Virus genome (UHGV): UHGV-0018629
DNA length: 64,000 bases
Reading direction: 5' to 3' (one strand)
Origin: a virus
Shown: positions 6,499-15,140 of the stretch, piece after piece
Position numbering within the stretch: position 1 is the stretch's first letter
How the letters are laid out: every line of letters begins with the position of its first letter
Program-made: the position numbers and the translations under genes
The notes under the pieces: model-generated
What the model saw: only the letters and a program-made list of their open reading frames with translations
Told to the model about the DNA's origin: nothing
The model's database searches: none

Positions 6499-7080
6499 TT
6501 AAGAATTACCGCGGGCTGCATTAGCAACGGCGTAAGCGTACTGAACATTAGCGTCTTTAAACGTACCTTTAGAGGTATCTATTTCTGCCTTAAAGCCGCC
6601 TTTAGTCATAACATCGGCAAATTCTTTACGGAAAGCCATTGCATCAAGACCTTTCCATGATGATTTATGCTTGGCAAATTCAAGACCAGCATAGTTGACA
6701 GCCTTAGCTAATTTATTATCAATAACCCATTTACCAGCTTTAGGCACAAACTTCGGGCCTTTTTGTTTAGAGAACAGTTTTAAATTCCAGCGACGAAGAT
6801 CACTGTCGGCTTTAACAAAAGCTGCATCTAAGTTACTAGCAACAACATCTTCAATATGGGCAAATTTAAGTCCGTCAACTTCAATATTTAGATCGTTACG
6901 CCAGCGAAGTCCTTCCCATGCGAAGGCTTTAAAGTCAGAAGCCTTTGTAGCTAAGTACCGTTCAATAGGAGCTGTTTTAGGGTCAAAGCCGTTTCCCGAT
7001 CGATAGGTCCACTCATCTTTATTAATGCCTTTGGCCTTTACTACAGAAGCTTCAGCAATAAATTCTTGATATGTTTTCAT
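6499..7080 (-). CDS. ipIII: Internal protein III
   Basis: 193 aa; MKTYQEFIAE|A capsid-targeting N-terminus; position between e and ipII-like gene. Confidence 0.75.
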   Translation of the reverse strand: MKTYQEFIAEASVVKAKGINKDEWTYRSGNGFDPKTAPIERYLATKASDFKAFAWEGLRWRNDLNIEVDGLKFAHIEDVVASNLDAAFVKADSDLRRWNLKLFSKQKGPKFVPKAGKWVIDNKLAKAVNYAGLEFAKHKSSWKGLDAMAFRKEFADVMTKGGFKAEIDTSKGTFKDANVQYAYAVANAARGNS

Positions 7081-7682: not shown

Positions 7683-8138
7683 TTAAAAGAGGCTGTTCAT
7701 TATTCGGTAAAGTGAAGGGCCCATCACATATTGCCACTGAGTACGAGGAATAAGAGCAAAAGCGTCCATCTCTGGAATCATAACGCCATCTTTATTTTCA
7801 AAATAAGACTCGCAATGGCAATTTCTGAACATCTCATGCTCTACTGGAATCGTATAATAAAATAACTGTAAGTCTTTATTACTAGAATATTTAAATACAC
7901 CTAAGTCTTCTAGAAGGTCTGGATTATAATTGCTAAAACCAGTCTCTTCTAAGCATTCTCTTCGTGCTGCATCTAATGCGCTTAAATCGGAATTTTCTAC
8001 ACGGCCTTTTGGAATATCCCAGCGATGTGCCATCATTCCAGGCTTACGAGAACCAGTAACTCGTCCCATAAATAAATCTTTATCTTCCGTCATAAAGATA
8101 ATACCAGCTGATAATGTTTTCATTTTAATTTCCTGCAT
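7683..8138 (-). CDS. nudE: Nudix hydrolase
   Basis: 151 aa; Nudix box GRVENSDLSALDAARRECLEETGF; position after e. Confidence 0.85.
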   Translation of the reverse strand: MQEIKMKTLSAGIIFMTEDKDLFMGRVTGSRKPGMMAHRWDIPKGRVENSDLSALDAARRECLEETGFSNYNPDLLEDLGVFKYSSNKDLQLFYYTIPVEHEMFRNCHCESYFENKDGVMIPEMDAFALIPRTQWQYVMGPSLYRIMNSLF

Positions 8139-8623
8139 TCTGTGATAAAGTTATTTAAATTTTGAGTATATTTCTTTTCATCAAAAATCTTTTGCTGCCT
8201 GCGTAACCGCCATGGCATTTCGATGAACACGCACCATATTCCTGATAGTATTGCTGCTGTAAAAATATTAACAAGTATGATTAAAAGAATCCAATCTCCC
8301 GTTCTGCCTACTGGACTTTCTCCAAAGAAGCAAAATACAAATGATGTCACAGGAAGACTAATAATATACCACAGAATCATAATCTTATCTGTGAACCAAT
8401 CAGCGTTCGTTAACTTAGCGCGACCATTATGAATACACACGAATTTATCATCTGTTATAATAGATGGCTTAACTGCTTGATATCCCATTCTAAACTCCCT
8501 AATTAATCGTTTCTTTGTATCTTCGGAACAGCCACTCCAATCAACTCTATCAACTGAAATGCCATCGTCCCCATCATCTAAATCATACCAGCGAGTTTTT
8601 AAAATCATTTGATTTTCCTGCAA
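8120..8623 (-). CDS. Small membrane protein, paralog 1 (2 predicted TM helices; C-terminal ITECRKLK)
   Basis: Hydrophobic segments ILWYIISLPVTSFVFCFF and ILLIILVNIFTAAILSGIWCVF; start may be the MILKT Met at 8608. Confidence 0.5.
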   Translation of the reverse strand: MQENQMILKTRWYDLDDGDDGISVDRVDWSGCSEDTKKRLIREFRMGYQAVKPSIITDDKFVCIHNGRAKLTNADWFTDKIMILWYIISLPVTSFVFCFFGESPVGRTGDWILLIILVNIFTAAILSGIWCVFIEMPWRLRRQQKIFDEKKYTQNLNNFITECRKLK

Positions 8624-8967
8624 TCACTCACGAATTCTTTCATTGATTCATTTTCAATATAAGACATGTAGCTATTGTATTCTTTTAATTGTATTTTGTA
8701 ATCCTTTTTTCTTTGCCAATTTATTTTAAAATTATCATAATGAAAAAATAGCATGGTACCAAAGAATGAAAATAATGAAATCGCTATAGTAAAACGAAGT
8801 TCACTCCAAACATCTGTTATAATTGCTGAACTATCGATGTTTAAAATAATACAGTCAATCATTAATCCAATAAGACTACCAGCAAGAGCTGCAGCCAACG
8901 CCACAGCAAGAATTAATAGCGCCTCGGGAAACGAATATTTGGCTTTATTTAGTTTTGGCTTTTGCAT
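8605..8967 (-). CDS. Small membrane protein, paralog 2 (C-terminal EFVSDCRKIK)
   Basis: 120 aa; TM segments ALLILAVALAAALAGSLIGLMI and FTIAISLFSFFGTMLFF. Confidence 0.5.
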   Translation of the reverse strand: MQKPKLNKAKYSFPEALLILAVALAAALAGSLIGLMIDCIILNIDSSAIITDVWSELRFTIAISLFSFFGTMLFFHYDNFKINWQRKKDYKIQLKEYNSYMSYIENESMKEFVSDCRKIK

Positions 8968-9362
8968 CGTGATTCCTTAACAAATTTCATAATTTCATTA
9001 AATTCATACATATCTAGCTTAAGCTGGTGTTCCTTTTTAATCTTTTTACACTGAGCTTTCCATTCACGTACGCGTTTACGATAATGTCTTCCTTGATACC
9101 AGTATCCTACCCAATTTATAGGTACTAATAAAAATGGAACTACAAATGGAAGAATTAATACGAACAGAAATATTAAGCCAGATTCAATATCAGTCATAAA
9201 GTCTATAACCATTCCAACAATCAATAGAATTACAAATGATATAGCTGTCACAGGACCTATTAATATATCAGTAGGAATTAGCTGGCGCTTTAATTCATAC
9301 TTCACAGGTTTACTTGGAAGGTATAGTGATGGCTTTGACATATTCTCTACATTCCTTAACAA
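8949..9362 (-). CDS. Small membrane protein, paralog 3 (C-terminal KFVKESRCK)
   Basis: 137 aa; two strongly hydrophobic helices. Confidence 0.5.
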   Translation of the reverse strand: MLRNVENMSKPSLYLPSKPVKYELKRQLIPTDILIGPVTAISFVILLIVGMVIDFMTDIESGLIFLFVLILPFVVPFLLVPINWVGYWYQGRHYRKRVREWKAQCKKIKKEHQLKLDMYEFNEIMKFVKESRCKSQN

Positions 9363-9924
9363 ATTTTTCTAATAATAAATCGCTTTCAAAATTGGGATTT
9401 TCCACGAATTTATCAAAAAGATCATCAACAATAGTTAAGATATTCTTTTTGCTAAGAATACGTTTATTTTCATGCTTTGTTTCAGAATCAACTATAAGAG
9501 TAAAGAAATATTTCTTTCCCTGAAATTTTACCGTAGTATCAATATAGAACAAATTTGACTTTTGTAAATTACGTTTAAACCATGCGTCACTTAAACTATA
9601 AACGCCAAGATAATCATAATCGTCATTTAAATAACAAACTGTCCATTCAGGAGAAATGAAATCAGTAAATTCAACATCAAAATCACATGTCAATGAATGA
9701 ATTGATTCAATACTTTTAATGAGTATTCCAGGACGTATTAAAGACTTTTTACCTCTAGAAAATCTTCCGGAAAGGCTTTCATCAGTTTCATACGAAGACC
9801 CCCAATAGTAATTACGTCCTTCTGCCATGCGTTTAAGAGCATTTAGTAATTGGTCTGGAACATCAACCTGTCTTTGGAACTCTTCAAACATTGAATTGAA
9901 ATCACTTTGCATTTTCATTTTCAT
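9310..9924 (-). CDS. Hypothetical soluble protein sharing the C-terminal KFVKECR motif
   Basis: 204 aa ORF; C-terminus overlaps start of next gene. Confidence 0.5.
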   Translation of the reverse strand: MKMKMQSDFNSMFEEFQRQVDVPDQLLNALKRMAEGRNYYWGSSYETDESLSGRFSRGKKSLIRPGILIKSIESIHSLTCDFDVEFTDFISPEWTVCYLNDDYDYLGVYSLSDAWFKRNLQKSNLFYIDTTVKFQGKKYFFTLIVDSETKHENKRILSKKNILTIVDDLFDKFVENPNFESDLLLEKFVKECREYVKAITIPSK

Positions 9925-9942: not shown

Positions 9943-9960
9943 ATAGGGGCCGAAGCCCCT
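9943..9960 (-). other. Stable UUCG-tetraloop hairpin (ggggc-ttcg-gcccc on minus strand) downstream of the coiled-coil gene
   Basis: Sequence aggggccgaagcccct; identical hairpin recurs at 51931..51948 after hoc. Confidence 0.5.
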
Positions 9961-9965
9961 TATCA

Positions 9966-10559
9966 TTATTTCAGAGAATTAATGTATTCCTGAACATCGG
10001 CAGAGGTAGTTTCAACCCCGGAAATATTACCGTTAAAGGTTTCAACTCGAGCAAGGGTATCTTCAATATCAACCTTAGTCAGCGCTGCAATTTCAACTAC
10101 ATCATCGGCAGTACTAATTCCAAGGGCATTTGCTGCACGAGTTTCACGGATATATTCCAATTTAACTGCAAGTTCTTGGCGAGCATCATCTAACTCAACT
10201 ACTTTCTTAGCAATTTCAATTCGCATTTCAGCATAACCGTCAGCCTTAGTAGTCAACTGCTCAGCTGTTCGACGATATAGTAAACCGAGTTTAGCATGCA
10301 TTGTTACATCTTGACCTTCGGAAAGAAGTTTACGAATTTCACGCTCTTTTGATTCAGCCTGTCGATTCTTTTCGACAATAAGTTCACGAATACGTTTTTC
10401 TTCATTAATAGATTTAACAGAAGCAGTTTTTAGATCTTTAATTTTATCAAGTAGTTTTGCTGCAGCAGCAGTATACTGTTCTTCAACAGATAGATTTTTA
10501 GCCATAGCAGAACCAAGTTTAGTGCGAATAAACTCAACAATTTTCTTCAGTGTGTTCAT
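9966..10559 (-). CDS. Coiled-coil protein, possibly PspA/IM30-like
   Basis: 197 aa, long heptad-rich helices with charged repeats; family assignment is from architecture only. Confidence 0.4.
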
Positions 10560-10616
10560 AGTATTTCCTTAGGTTGATACAATTAGATAATATCACGTTT
10601 TTAATAGATTGTAAAC

Positions 10617-11511: not shown

Positions 11512-12075
11512 TTATTTATCTAGTTTAGTTATTATAGCTTCTGCAGCAGCTTTTAGCTTAGATGCGGTGTTAATACGATTTTTAATTTCAGTATACGCAT
11601 CGCCAAGAACATCAAGGCTATCAGAATAAACACTTACACTATTGCGTTCGCTATTTGAAATAGAACCTTTAGTTTTGCGGTCAAAATCGGTGTACACGTC
11701 TTGAAGATCGCGGGCTGCCTTCTTTGCATCATCCAATGCATCAAGAGCTTTATTCAAAGCATTAACGTATTTTTTAGTGTCGAACATATTCTTAGAAATT
11801 TTAACAGGTGCGCGTTCAGGAGTAGCTAACACAGATTTAGGAACCTGAGCGCCAGATGCCAATTTCTTAGAAATTTTGAAAAATGCTTTATTGAATTTAT
11901 TTTCTTGACTCATTGTAAAAGAACTATTATCGATGTTGTACATTTCAATAGCTTTAGCTTTCCACTTAAGAAAATCGCCGCGGTCTTTTGGGTCCAATTG
12001 GAAGAATACTTTAGTAAGATCTGCTTCAGATGGTAATTTTGCTGCTTCGGTTAAAAATTCGGCATAAGTTTTCAT
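11512..12075 (-). CDS. Internal-protein-like gene with capsid-targeting sequence
   Basis: 187 aa; N-terminus MKTYAEFLTE|AA matches the CTS/cleavage pattern; Lys/Ala-rich body. Confidence 0.55.
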   Translation of the reverse strand: MKTYAEFLTEAAKLPSEADLTKVFFQLDPKDRGDFLKWKAKAIEMYNIDNSSFTMSQENKFNKAFFKISKKLASGAQVPKSVLATPERAPVKISKNMFDTKKYVNALNKALDALDDAKKAARDLQDVYTDFDRKTKGSISNSERNSVSVYSDSLDVLGDAYTEIKNRINTASKLKAAAEAIITKLDK

Positions 12076-12200: not shown

Positions 12201-12674
12201 TTATTTGATTTGTTTAGCAGACCAAATGCGGTCTTTAATAATTTTTTGGATGTCTTCAACATACTCAAGAGAGTGAACATGTGGATTATCTTTGAAACTA
12301 TAAGCACGGGCTAACTTTTGGCCTTCGGTCTTAATTATCAAAAGTTCTTTAAGAATTGCTTCATATTTAGAGATAATTCCTTTAACGATATTTTTTTCTT
12401 GTGCGGCTTTAGGATCTGCTTTAGGAGCAGGTTTACCTGAAGCCTTTGCAAAAGCAGCGCCAGTAGCAACTAGACTTTTCCAGGCCATACTAACCGCATT
12501 TCCTGTAAATCCTTCTGCTTTCATGTCGCGAGCAAATTGGAATCGTGATTCATCAGAAGCATCTTTATAAGAATATTTACCCGCTGCAATGGCTGCTTTT
12601 GCAACAGCTTGAATTTCGGTGCTAGATGCTTCATTTAACACCGCTTCATTTAAAAATTGAGTATATGATTTCAT
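12201..12674 (-). CDS. Internal-protein-like gene with capsid-targeting sequence
   Basis: 157 aa; N-terminus MKSYTQFLNE|AV; flanked by identical terminator repeats. Confidence 0.55.
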   Translation of the reverse strand: MKSYTQFLNEAVLNEASSTEIQAVAKAAIAAGKYSYKDASDESRFQFARDMKAEGFTGNAVSMAWKSLVATGAAFAKASGKPAPKADPKAAQEKNIVKGIISKYEAILKELLIIKTEGQKLARAYSFKDNPHVHSLEYVEDIQKIIKDRIWSAKQIK

Positions 12675-13035: not shown

Positions 13036-13590
13036 TTACCGGTAGCGACCCGGTTTCTCATTTGGTATTTCAAATTGTGTAGATTTAGTATCTAATTTTT
13101 TAACTACGGAACTTATGTCATGAAAGAAAAACCATTCGCCATTTATATGGTCCTGATTATAAATGCTGTGCATATATTTTTCAAGTTCTACTGCATCCTG
13201 GGAATATCTAAATGATACTATTTTAAAACTTTTAAACGGTGAAAATGTATTTGCTGTTATAACTCTAACATCGGGTTCTATACTTCTTCCTATTTTATAA
13301 TAATTAGGATTTGTAGTATCTACCATTATGTATACGAAAGCCTGTCGATAGCTTTTTTCTATATCAAATTCATCTTTAAATTTCAAAAGATTTAGGGCGG
13401 CAGTCCTACAAAATACTTTCCATTTTGACAAACGTTTGGCTTCAGTCATAGAAAAGAATTTTTTCTTATCTGTTATTTTAAGAAAAGCAACATTTTCAAT
13501 TAGTTCTTGTGTTATTTCAAAATTACCATGGTATATTAATCCAGCTTTTATAGCCAAATTAATTTGGTCCCAGTCTACATCACTTCTCAT
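13036..13590 (-). CDS. T5orf172/MUG113-like (GIY-YIG-related) domain protein
   Basis: 184 aa; C-terminal half VYIMVDTTNPNYYKIGRS...R...LEKYMH...GEWFF fits the T5orf172 pattern. Confidence 0.5.
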   Translation of the reverse strand: MRSDVDWDQINLAIKAGLIYHGNFEITQELIENVAFLKITDKKKFFSMTEAKRLSKWKVFCRTAALNLLKFKDEFDIEKSYRQAFVYIMVDTTNPNYYKIGRSIEPDVRVITANTFSPFKSFKIVSFRYSQDAVELEKYMHSIYNQDHINGEWFFFHDISSVVKKLDTKSTQFEIPNEKPGRYR

Positions 13591-13611: not shown

Positions 13612-13688
13612 TGGCCAGGGTGAAAGGATTCTAACCTTTAACCTGCGGTTTAGAGGACCGCTACTCTATACAATTGAGTTACACCCCG
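13612..13688 (-). tRNA. tRNA-Arg (anticodon UCU), CCA encoded
   Basis: Hand-folded cloverleaf: acceptor cggggtg/caccctg, anticodon arm gcggt-cctctaa-accgc; atypical D- and T-loops. Confidence 0.55.
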
Positions 13689-13813
13689 TAATTAGTTCAC
13701 AGCAATACCTACTCCAACAATCAAGATGTCTTCACACGAAATTAAGAGAAGAGTGATCAGTTCAACCCTATAATCGCGTCAAGTAGATATTAATGTGACA
13801 GTTGTCACAAATT
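13689..13813 (-). ncRNA. Candidate small stable RNA between tRNA-Arg and tRNA-Asn
   Basis: 125-nt non-coding spacer in a co-transcribed tRNA cluster; contains hairpin tgtgac/gtcaca; analogous to T4 species 1/2 RNAs by position only. Confidence 0.25.
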
Positions 13814-13888
13814 TGGCGGACGTGATAGGATTCGAACCTATAACCAATCGCTTAACAGGCGATCGCTCTGCCATTGAGCTACACATCC
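13814..13888 (-). tRNA. tRNA-Asn (anticodon GUU), CCA encoded
   Basis: Cloverleaf: acceptor ggatgtg/cacgtcc, anticodon loop ctgttaa, T-loop ttcgaat. Confidence 0.75.
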
Positions 13889-13892
13889 AAAT

Positions 13893-13979
13893 TGGTGGGG
13901 AGTGATGGAGTCGAACCACCCGAGTCGCAATGACAATGGATTTACAGTCCACACCGCTACCTCTACGGGATAACTCCCC
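13893..13979 (-). tRNA. tRNA-Tyr (anticodon GUA), type II with long variable arm, CCA encoded
   Basis: Acceptor ggggagt/actcccc, anticodon loop ctgtaaa. Confidence 0.75.
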
Positions 13980-13992
13980 TTAATTCTTAATT

Positions 13993-14067
13993 TGGTGGCC
14001 CTGGGTGGAATTGAACCACCATCTGGCGATTATGAGTCGCTTGCTTGAACCTTCCAGCTACAGGGCC
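13993..14067 (-). tRNA. tRNA with CAU anticodon (Met, or Ile if lysidine-modified as in T4)
   Basis: Acceptor ggccctg/cagggcc, anticodon loop ctcataa. Confidence 0.75.
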
Positions 14068-14068
14068 T

Positions 14069-14144
14069 TGGTGCTGATTGACGGAATCGAACCGCCGACC
14101 TTCTCATTACAAGTGAGTTGCTCTACCTACTGAGCTAAATCAGC
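14069..14144 (-). tRNA. tRNA-Thr (anticodon UGU)
   Basis: Acceptor gctgatt/aatcagc, anticodon loop cttgtaa, T-loop ttcgatt. Confidence 0.75.
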
Positions 14145-14149
14145 AAAAC

Positions 14150-14239
14150 TGGCGGAGGCGATAGGATTTGAACCTATGAGTCACCGGAGCGACTGCCGGT
14201 TTTCAAGACCGGTGCATTAAACCACTCTGCCACGCCTCC
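14150..14239 (-). tRNA. tRNA-Ser (anticodon UGA), type II
   Basis: Acceptor ggaggcg/cgcctcc, anticodon arm ccggt-cttgaaa-accgg, long variable arm. Confidence 0.75.
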
Positions 14240-14245
14240 AAATAT

Positions 14246-14896
14246 TTATATATTGTTAATTTGATTTAGAATTCTTTTTGCTTGAGTATGACTTACGCCA
14301 ATATGCTTAGCATATTTAGATAATTCGCCACGCTTAGAAAAATCATATAATTTAGAAATTTCTATTCTTCTTTTTCTTTCATCCGCAGAAACTTTTGCTT
14401 CGTTTGCTTTTGCTATTTTACGTTTAGCTTCTTGAGAATGAGTTTTACCAGCAAAGCCATTCTTCATTAATCCATTTGAAGACCATCCTTTTAATTTTCC
14501 GTTAGAATGTGCCTTTTTAACACCCAATGAAATTAATTCACGTTGCTGATCTGTCATAGGATAATTATTTATATGATCCCATCCACCTTCACCTCCAAGT
14601 TTTAAATTATACACATCTGGTCTATTTAAAAACTCTTCTGTGACAATATTTTTCTCGGCTTCAAGCATAGATTCTTTATCATCAAAATACTCTAATATTT
14701 CTTTAGAAAAATTTTCTATACCATATTTATCTTGGGCTCTTTTTAATAATTTACCAGAACCCATATATCCATCATCTAAATTTTCGGTAGAATGCACACC
14801 AATATAAATTTTATTATTAATTTTATTTGTTATTTTATAAAGATAAAAATGCATATCAGTCCCTAATAAAGAACTGAGCGTCTCACGACGAGTCAT
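14246..14896 (-). CDS. segB: GIY-YIG homing endonuclease (SegB-like) inside the tRNA cluster
   Basis: 216 aa; N-terminal GIY-YIG motif YLYKITNKINNKIYIGVHST, basic C-terminal DNA-binding region; lies between tRNA-Gly and tRNA-Ser. Confidence 0.75.
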   Translation of the reverse strand: MTRRETLSSLLGTDMHFYLYKITNKINNKIYIGVHSTENLDDGYMGSGKLLKRAQDKYGIENFSKEILEYFDDKESMLEAEKNIVTEEFLNRPDVYNLKLGGEGGWDHINNYPMTDQQRELISLGVKKAHSNGKLKGWSSNGLMKNGFAGKTHSQEAKRKIAKANEAKVSADERKRRIEISKLYDFSKRGELSKYAKHIGVSHTQAKRILNQINNI

Positions 14897-14900
14897 AAAT

Positions 14901-14974
<74 letters not shown>

Positions 14975-14979
14975 AAATT

Positions 14980-15066
14980 TGGTGCGAGAAGTGGGACTCG
15001 AACCCACAAGGAAATCATTCCGCAGCATTTTAAGTGCTGTGCCTTTACCAATTTGACCATTCTCGC
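14980..15066 (-). tRNA. tRNA-Leu (anticodon UAA), type II
   Basis: Acceptor gcgagaa/ttctcgc, anticodon arm cagca-cttaaaa-tgctg. Confidence 0.75.
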
Positions 15067-15067
15067 G

Positions 15068-15140
15068 CTGGGAATAAAGGACTCGAACCTTTGCATCCTG
15101 GAATCAAAATCCAGTGCCTTACCAACTTGGCTAATTCCCA
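15068..15140 (-). tRNA. tRNA-Gln (anticodon UUG), no encoded CCA, abuts tRNA-Leu
   Basis: Acceptor tgggaat/attccca, anticodon arm ctgga-ttttgat-tccag; one nt separates it from tRNA-Leu. Confidence 0.7.

Follow-up and report, generated by a model that had tools for sequence, protein, structure and literature searches.

Gene e.6 of T4-type phages encodes a divergent PspA/IM30/Vipp1-like protein

The virus genome sequence UHGV-0018629, a stretch of 64,000 nucleotides referred to here as the window, carries on its minus strand an open reading frame (ORF) of 197 amino acids that corresponds to gene e.6 of T4-type phages. Its product is a strongly divergent, phage-specific protein of the PspA/IM30/Vipp1 family and not a new kind of system; homology to this family is very probable from the comparisons of sequence profiles. 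In the ORF listing of the window the ORF extends exactly from 9966 to 10559, from ATG to TAA, and no other ORF of 40 codons or more overlaps this interval in any frame. The DNA around it is 95-97% identical to Tequatrovirus (T4-like) genomes, and the matching gene in the annotated relative LR746311 is e.6, which lies there in the order e (lysozyme), nudE, e.2, e.3, e.5, e.6, e.7, e.8, tRNAs; the window has in addition an ORF at 8949-9362 where T4 annotates e.4. The ORF is a real gene, the e.6 of a T4-type phage. Searched as a single sequence against PHROG, the protein matched phrog_1203 ('unknown function') with an E value of 1.1e-87. From the ORF, the LR746311 annotation, this match and the profile and structure homology, the coding sequence at 9966-10559 (minus strand, 197 amino acids plus stop) was assigned to a divergent PspA/IM30/Vipp1-family protein from the ESCRT-III superfamily, as well as to PHROG 1203. 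A preliminary description of the window had already placed a 197-amino acid ORF at these positions, omitting its strand, and the ORF was confirmed.

The link with PspA and Vipp1 depended on the depth of the profile. A first profile was shallow (30 sequences, identity of at least 47%) and its matches to Vipp1 among PDB sequences were non-significant (E 1.4-3.4) though colinear. The alignment A2 holds 42 sequences with identities to e.6 down to 18%, including distant members found in an exhaustive search of representative proteins, and the profile matches became significant only once these distant members had been included. The seven best PDB matches of the A2 profile were all Vipp1/PspA-family chains, with E values from 1.2e-4 to 7e-4; they aligned profile position 1 to about 146 with chain residues 1 to about 147 and ranked above every generic coiled coil. 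Escherichia coli PspA (4WHE) was colinear with the profile as well (1-137 on 1-138), at an E value of 0.86 that is not significant alone. When the members were scanned against Pfam at E up to 10, five of the 42 matched PF04012 (PspA_IM30), and the matches cover the hairpin part of the protein described below. Two of the five, P0066 and P0065, scored 39.0 and 35.1 bits, above the gathering cut-off of 33.9, and two others, P0067 and P0068, had E values of about 1e-4. The precomputed annotation of the protein collection also labels P0065 and P0066 as PspA_IM30. These two members were retrieved in full length by the T4-type profile (E 1e-20 to 1e-21), tblastn with P0065 led to T4-type e.6 genes including the annotated e.6 of RB69 (E 1e-9 to 6e-6), and blastp of the window protein against P0065 in a small local database gave an E value of 3.5e-15. 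A phmmer search of PDB with the bridging member P0066 returned nothing relevant.

A2 was also compared by hhalign with an alignment of enterobacterial PspA and two Vipp1 N-terminal fragments. The local alignment placed e.6 residues 1-177 on PspA 1-173 (91.8% probability, E 7e-7), and the global one placed e.6 1-197 on PspA 1-214 (92.9% probability, E 5e-8) with a single deletion of about 21 residues in e.6, in the region of helix 4 and its linker. The best out-of-register alignment reached a probability of 0.3%, so composition alone does not yield the PspA match. This bears on the idea that the similarity is compositional and that e.6 is an unrelated coiled-coil hairpin protein, for instance a scaffold or an adaptor, which would agree with the lack of a significant match for the single sequence and with the many weak coiled-coil Pfam matches scattered over the family members. 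However, the matches run colinearly from residue 1 as far as the C-terminus, interrupted by one gap; the positions of the alpha0/alpha1 break, the hairpin tip and the elbow coincide with those in PspA; the in-register alignments stand at 91-93% against 0.3% out of register; two members exceed a curated Pfam threshold; and the seven best PDB profile matches, all of the Vipp1/PspA family, come ahead of generic coiled coils. A purely compositional origin is thus very improbable.

The preliminary description had called the protein almost entirely helical and possibly PspA/IM30-like in architecture, and both statements held. The sequence contains no Pro, Trp or Cys, 34% of its residues are charged and 55% are A, L, E, K, Q, R or M. 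Its hydrophobic periodicity of about 3.5 residues over residues 25-145 exceeds that of 98% of shuffled sequences, and AlphaFold2 models it as 83% helical. Two AlphaFold2 runs, one with 30 sequences (mean predicted local distance difference test score, pLDDT, of 74.7) and one with 42 more diverse sequences (mean pLDDT 80.6, predicted template modelling score 0.65), agree on the layout. In the second run the helices comprise residues 2-22, 25-80, 86-145, 152-173 and 186-196, and this modelled layout is the alpha0-alpha5 arrangement of PspA/ESCRT-III. Residues 2-22 (10494-10556, minus strand as are the following segments) form alpha0, a predicted amphipathic and cationic N-terminal helix and putative membrane-binding element, recognised from the model and from a residue-for-residue alignment with alpha0 of PspA/Vipp1; its pLDDT is 62-64, its hydrophobic moment 0.45 (family mean 0.42) and its net charge +4. 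Residues 25-145 (10125-10487) form a helical hairpin composed of alpha1 (25-80), the tip (81-85) and alpha2/3 (86-145), which in the 42-sequence run is modelled at a pLDDT of about 90 or more and, as predicted, corresponds to the hallmark motif of PspA/Vipp1/ESCRT-III. A conserved elbow with G147 precedes an alpha4-like helix at residues 152-173 (10041-10106), placed by AlphaFold2 at low confidence and by the global hhalign alignment. The C-terminal alpha5-like helix at residues 186-196 (9972-10004) was identified from AlphaFold2, hhalign and family conservation. G147 in the elbow and Y192 and L196 in alpha5 are near-invariant; conservation within the family is highest in the elbow, and elbow, alpha4 and alpha5 are all more conserved than alpha1. 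This conservation of the C-terminal part fits a functional contact like the interface between alpha5 and the hairpin tip that defines ESCRT-III-type polymers.

The model of e.6 was compared with known structures by Foldseek. Against PDB, the top eight matches were Vipp1 (best E 3.7e-4, probability 1.0), followed in the ranking by archaeal CdvB (E 0.04) and PspA 7ABK; an Asgard ESCRT-IIIB was also among the structural matches. Against viral models the family itself came first, then one unnamed viral protein of 222 residues, and next a protein of Acinetobacter phage ME3 that is annotated as PspA/IM30 family, together with a Snf7 protein from a giant virus. The resemblance to eukaryotic and archaeal ESCRT-III (Snf7) is a weak structural one, and Snf7 (PF03357) was absent from the listed matches of the window protein, from those of 10 members scanned singly and from the 25 most-matched families. 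The combination of a sequence-family match with a dimeric three-helix banana fold, which would mark a BAR, F-BAR or I-BAR protein, was not found. Taken with the predicted alpha0-alpha5 layout, the Vipp1 chains at the top of the A2 profile search, the members above the PF04012 cut-off and the hhalign probabilities of 92-93%, these rankings are the opposite of a protein devoid of PspA/IM30 profile similarity and closer to some other coiled-coil family, the outcome that would have spoken against the preliminary description.

Several observations weigh against this assignment and show how far e.6 lies from the characterised proteins. The window protein alone has no match to PF04012 in Pfam and none among PDB sequences, in both cases even at E 10, and no match of note in NCBIfam; its single-sequence matches in these three collections are sub-threshold coiled-coil noise and were discarded. 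The link to PspA is therefore one by profile, and transitive: similarity to the PspA/IM30/Vipp1 family was found at the level of the e.6 family and not for the window protein by itself. In the alignment e.6 and PspA are about 15% identical, and canonical PspA and Vipp1 match each other at an E value of 2e-30, which makes e.6 a far outlier and not an ordinary PspA. The amphipathicity of alpha0 is not statistically exceptional, as 12% of shuffled sequences reach a moment of 0.45. Compared with PspA, the alpha4 helix lacks about 21 residues, and its modelling is of low confidence, so that the geometry of any polymer may differ from that of PspA. Finally, no PspB-, PspC- or PspF-like gene or other conserved partner was found near e.6 in either T4-type or distant phages.

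Full-length homologues of e.6 occur in about 1,100 phage records, with identities from 100% down to about 32%, and the hosts of these records belong to Escherichia, Klebsiella, Shigella, Aeromonas, Enterobacter, Yersinia, Citrobacter, Salmonella, Cronobacter and other genera. When 1.8 billion representative proteins were searched exhaustively with a profile, only 45 relatives emerged, nearly all of about 200 amino acids, and the e.6 family is accordingly small. All five places inspected for the setting of these relatives were phage records or phage-type contigs. In T4 the e.6 RNA is of the early class and the protein of the middle class, and the protein has been detected by mass spectrometry (PMC9697503 supplement). 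GenBank records and the genome-wide datasets of 2022-2025 label e.6 as 'conserved hypothetical, unknown function'. Several GenBank/UniRef entries (e.g. ON229909, OR352946, MW250787) call its homologues 'host specificity protein', and one BFVD entry for a homologue is named 'tail completion protein'; no support was found for either name, and both look like propagated misannotations. A match to a Rz-like spanin PHROG (E 0.22) was weak, found no support and was likewise rejected.

By analogy with its relatives, e.6 probably acts, in our somewhat guarded judgement, as an early, phage-made membrane stabiliser that preserves the proton-motive force. The preliminary description had voiced a related idea, that a phage copy of PspA, if genuine, might support the inner membrane in infection or lysis inhibition. 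PspA and Vipp1 reduce proton leak, the induction of host pspA is sigma-54-dependent, T4 blocks host transcription and the T4 holin triggers upon loss of the proton-motive force. With host transcription shut off the cell cannot induce its own pspA, and we propose that the phage for this reason supplies the Psp effector itself, in place of the uninducible host gene. Transcribed from an early promoter, e.6 would be made within minutes of infection and would bind the inner membrane from the cytoplasmic side by means of its cationic amphipathic alpha0. It would then polymerise by side-by-side packing of hairpins, with alpha5 docking on the hairpin tip of a neighbour, and the polymer would patch or stiffen the stressed membrane and limit the leakage of protons. 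The stress could come from DNA injection, from superinfection, from the build-up of holin during lysis inhibition or from abortive-infection effectors that attack the membrane. The benefit to the phage would be to avoid premature holin triggering and an energy collapse that aborts the infection.

Published screens give results that count against a role of this kind. CRISPR interference (CRISPRi) knock-down of T4 e.6 gave a score of +0.30, 'Not Fit', with no fitness loss on the laboratory host (PMC11879866 supplement). In a T4 transposon screen on hosts expressing RexAB only rIIA and rIIB were reported as depleted; since rII was intact there, this argues only weakly against a simple anti-Rex role. 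The same screen on hosts with CBASS, an antiphage signalling system based on cyclic oligonucleotides, reported only acb1 as conditionally essential. These screens fit an accessory, non-essential gene. They also bear on a narrower interpretation, in which e.6 would be a dedicated counter-defence protein directed at abortive-infection effectors that depolarise or permeabilise the inner membrane (effectors of the Rex or AbiZ type, or 2TM/pore proteins from CBASS and comparable systems) and would have no role outside hosts that carry them. Such a function has been proposed in print for phrog_1203 and its Kuttervirus homologue (PMC9409062), and the dispensability of e.6 on a defence-poor K-12 host (PMC11879866 supplement) is typical of accessory anti-defence genes; its early expression and its position within a region of small accessory genes point the same way. 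However, the RexAB and CBASS screens brought out rIIA/rIIB and acb1 only, with the reservation that the intact rII may mask an effect of e.6, and the conservation of e.6 in over 1,000 phages, whose hosts belong to many genera, agrees better with a general role in physiology than with a counter to a single defence system. We consider a purely anti-defence function unlikely, if worth keeping in mind.

A different possibility is that e.6 does not repair membranes but is a mimic aimed at the Psp machinery of the host or at proteins that use host PspA. It could bind PspF or PspB/C, it could co-polymerise with host PspA and poison it, or it could serve as a decoy for PspA-docking systems, for example type II CBASS, in which Cap2 conjugates the cyclase to PspA. 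PspA binds partners through its alpha1 region, and the homology of e.6 spans this region. ESCRT-III-type proteins commonly form heteropolymers, and with its shortened alpha4, e.6 could function as a capping subunit. A CBASS cyclase is kept inactive by conjugation to PspA (PMC11153139), a link that comes from a Bacillus cereus system in Bacillus subtilis and not from enterobacterial hosts. On the other side, an identity of about 15% to E. coli PspA makes the retention of specific contacts with PspF or PspBC doubtful, a block of psp induction would add little once T4 has shut off host transcription, and direct evidence for a mimic was not found. Overall this mode of action seems rather improbable. 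A further and bolder proposal, to which we give about as small a chance, is that e.6 goes beyond passive patching and forms an active polymer of the ESCRT-III type, encoded by the virus, which would remodel or re-wire the inner membrane of the host or those of its processes that depend on PspA. Such a polymer could, for example, seal the lesions of DNA entry, organise membrane sites of phage assembly, co-polymerise with host PspA or act as a decoy for the Cap2-cyclase of type II CBASS. If this were true, T4 would be the first phage for which ESCRT-III machinery of its own had been demonstrated.

Several sequence signals flank e.6. A Shine-Dalgarno-like AGGAAA, read from the sequence at 10564-10569 (minus strand), lies 4 nucleotides 5' of the ATG, with its AGGA core 7 nucleotides 5'. 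Immediately upstream, at 10587-10615 (minus strand), there is a sigma-70-type promoter-like site recognised by consensus match (TTTACA, 17 nucleotides, TATTAT, with a TG extension), and this candidate promoter is consistent with the early RNA class of T4 e.6. On the other side of the gene, a GGGGC-UUCG-GCCCC hairpin without a U-tract was read at 9945-9960 (minus strand), 5 nucleotides past the e.6 stop codon and between e.6 and e.5. The same element has been listed as the 'e.6' terminator, at -13.9 kcal/mol (PMC5931544). This intergenic structure probably stabilises RNA or acts as a partial terminator. It sits directly 5' of the e.5 ribosome-binding site, and its role may be to stabilise the e.6 mRNA or to modulate the translation of e.5, as opposed to terminating transcription.

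For the neighbouring genes e.2-e.5, e.7 and e.8, all matches were to PHROGs of unknown function and none to a Psp family, and no coupling to a Psp system by way of PspF, PspB/PspC or a LiaI-type anchor was found. No gene neighbours are common to the T4-type and Kuttervirus-like contexts. Small predicted membrane proteins do occur near e.6 in both settings; they are mutually unrelated, and such proteins are common in phage early regions. In the window, e.2, e.3, e.4 and e.5 (8120-9924, minus strand) have overlapping start and stop codons. Short DNA repeats lie at their junctions, where 8120-8140 resembles 8605-8625 and an identical 16-mer is found at 8972-8987 and 9351-9366. The C-terminal regions of e.2-e.5 have the peptide motif F-(I/V)-x-(E/D)-(C/S)-R in common, and e.2 to e.4 contain hydrophobic, transmembrane-like stretches. 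Their sequences suggest that e.2-e.5 are a tandemly diversified set of small membrane proteins beside the PspA-like gene. On a Kuttervirus-like contig of 156 kb (L005, 5809-8293) the PspA_IM30-positive homologue is flanked by small ORFs of 45, 197, 156 and 57 amino acids, which carry N-terminal hydrophobic segments and have no Pfam match; three downstream ORFs of that contig appear to have a common C-terminal domain (F-W-x-x-F...FPKV), also without a Pfam match.

Other features were observed in the variable gap between e.8 and the tRNA genes and in the tRNA region itself. Two tandem paralogous ORFs at 11512-12075 and 12201-12674 (both minus) match phrog_2280 (unknown function). They start with MKTYAEFLTEA and MKSYTQFLNEA, close in sequence to MKTYQEFIAEA, the N-terminus encoded by the ORF for an internal virion protein at 6499-7080 (minus; phrog_5341). 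The shared N-terminus looks like a capsid-targeting sequence, and the two ORFs may encode extra packaged internal proteins. Between these internal-protein-like ORFs and tRNA-Arg, a 184-amino acid ORF at 13036-13590 (minus) matches MUG113 (E 1.9e-9) and T5orf172 (E 2.9e-6), and both matches exceed the threshold. The two domains are related to GIY-YIG and typical of phage genes of the mobile or homing type. The cluster of nine tRNAs at 13612-15140 (minus; Arg-tct, Asn, Tyr, Met, Thr, Ser, Gly, Leu, Gln) is the usual T4-type tRNA region, in which about 660 bp separate tRNA-Ser from tRNA-Gly.

Homology at the level of the PHROG was proposed in print in 2022, and pspA-like genes have been annotated in other phages. 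A Salmonella-phage annotation study of that year reported Gp_125 of Kuttervirus SeF3a, a phrog_1203 protein, to be homologous to PspA by HHpred against pdb70, suggested that it acts against abortive infection, and gave phrog_1203 the label 'phage_shock_protein_A' (PMC9409062). We found no literature that names T4 e.6 as a PspA homologue or reports experiments on the e.6 family, and no mention of e.6 in the main texts of the CRISPRi-ART and HIDEN-SEQ studies. T4 is the reference lytic phage, in which e.6 is still listed without a function, and recognising the protein as PspA/Vipp1-type gives a concrete and testable role to a gene conserved among Straboviridae and Kuttervirus-like phages, in over 1,000 genomes. 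The recognition also draws a direct link between phage infection and the bacterial ESCRT-III membrane-repair family, in a phage that is tractable for questions on the energisation of the host membrane during superinfection, lysis inhibition and attack by abortive-infection systems.

Comparison with named systems places e.6 within this superfamily as follows. Gp_125 of Kuttervirus SeF3a is in the same PHROG 1203 family. P0065 and P0066, the Kuttervirus-like members, are homologous to e.6 over the full length, at an identity to the T4-type protein of only about 24%; they pass the Pfam PspA threshold whereas the T4-type protein does not, and their genomic neighbourhood differs from that of T4-type phages. 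The 'PspA/IM30 family protein' of Acinetobacter phage vB_AbaM_ME3 is a structural neighbour of e.6 (Foldseek E 8e-3), and a pspA-like gene has been reported in the Jug jumbo phages; these are viral copies of the same superfamily. Unlike e.6, the ME3 and Jug proteins are recognisable by standard annotation; they belong to other phage lineages and have no detectable close sequence relationship to e.6. The archaeal and eukaryotic ESCRT-III proteins (CdvB, CHMP1B, Snf7) show a hairpin plus alpha4/alpha5 architecture like that of e.6, which differs from them in having a predicted alpha0, as in the bacterial branch, and in showing no evident Vps4-type ATPase or MIM motif, although no examination aimed at the C-terminal motif was made. 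Cyanobacterial Vipp1/IM30 (Synechocystis sll0617 and Nostoc Vipp1; 7O3W, 6ZVR, 8QFV) gave the best profile and the best structural matches of e.6. The two are colinear over alpha0-alpha3 and have the same fold, e.6 lacks the Vipp1-specific C-terminal extension alpha6, and its divergence far exceeds that between PspA and Vipp1 themselves. In PspA/Vipp1 the hairpin comprises amino acids 24-142, damaged membrane is bound via alpha0, and polymerisation proceeds via hairpin and alpha5 contacts (PMC8281802). E. coli PspA (PF04012) is surrounded by a pspF and pspBCDE context that e.6 does not have, and it is expressed from a sigma-54 stress promoter whereas e.6 is a lytic-phage gene with a candidate early phage promoter. 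It has 222 amino acids against the 197 of e.6, in which about 21 residues of alpha4 and the linker are missing, and its alpha0 has a net charge of 0 against +4 in e.6. In spite of these differences, the predicted helices of e.6 follow the alpha0-alpha5 order of PspA, the hairpin of e.6 (25-145) matches that of PspA (24-142), and the hydrophobic moments of alpha0 are similar (0.42-0.49 in PspA and 0.45 in e.6). Sequence motifs are also shared in register: I40-x-x-L43-(K/R)44 of e.6 corresponds to L40-x-x-V43-R44 of PspA, L91 to L91, ARVETF in alpha4 to ARFESF, and DVxEYLxSLK at the C-terminus to D-x-ISEQLAQLK.

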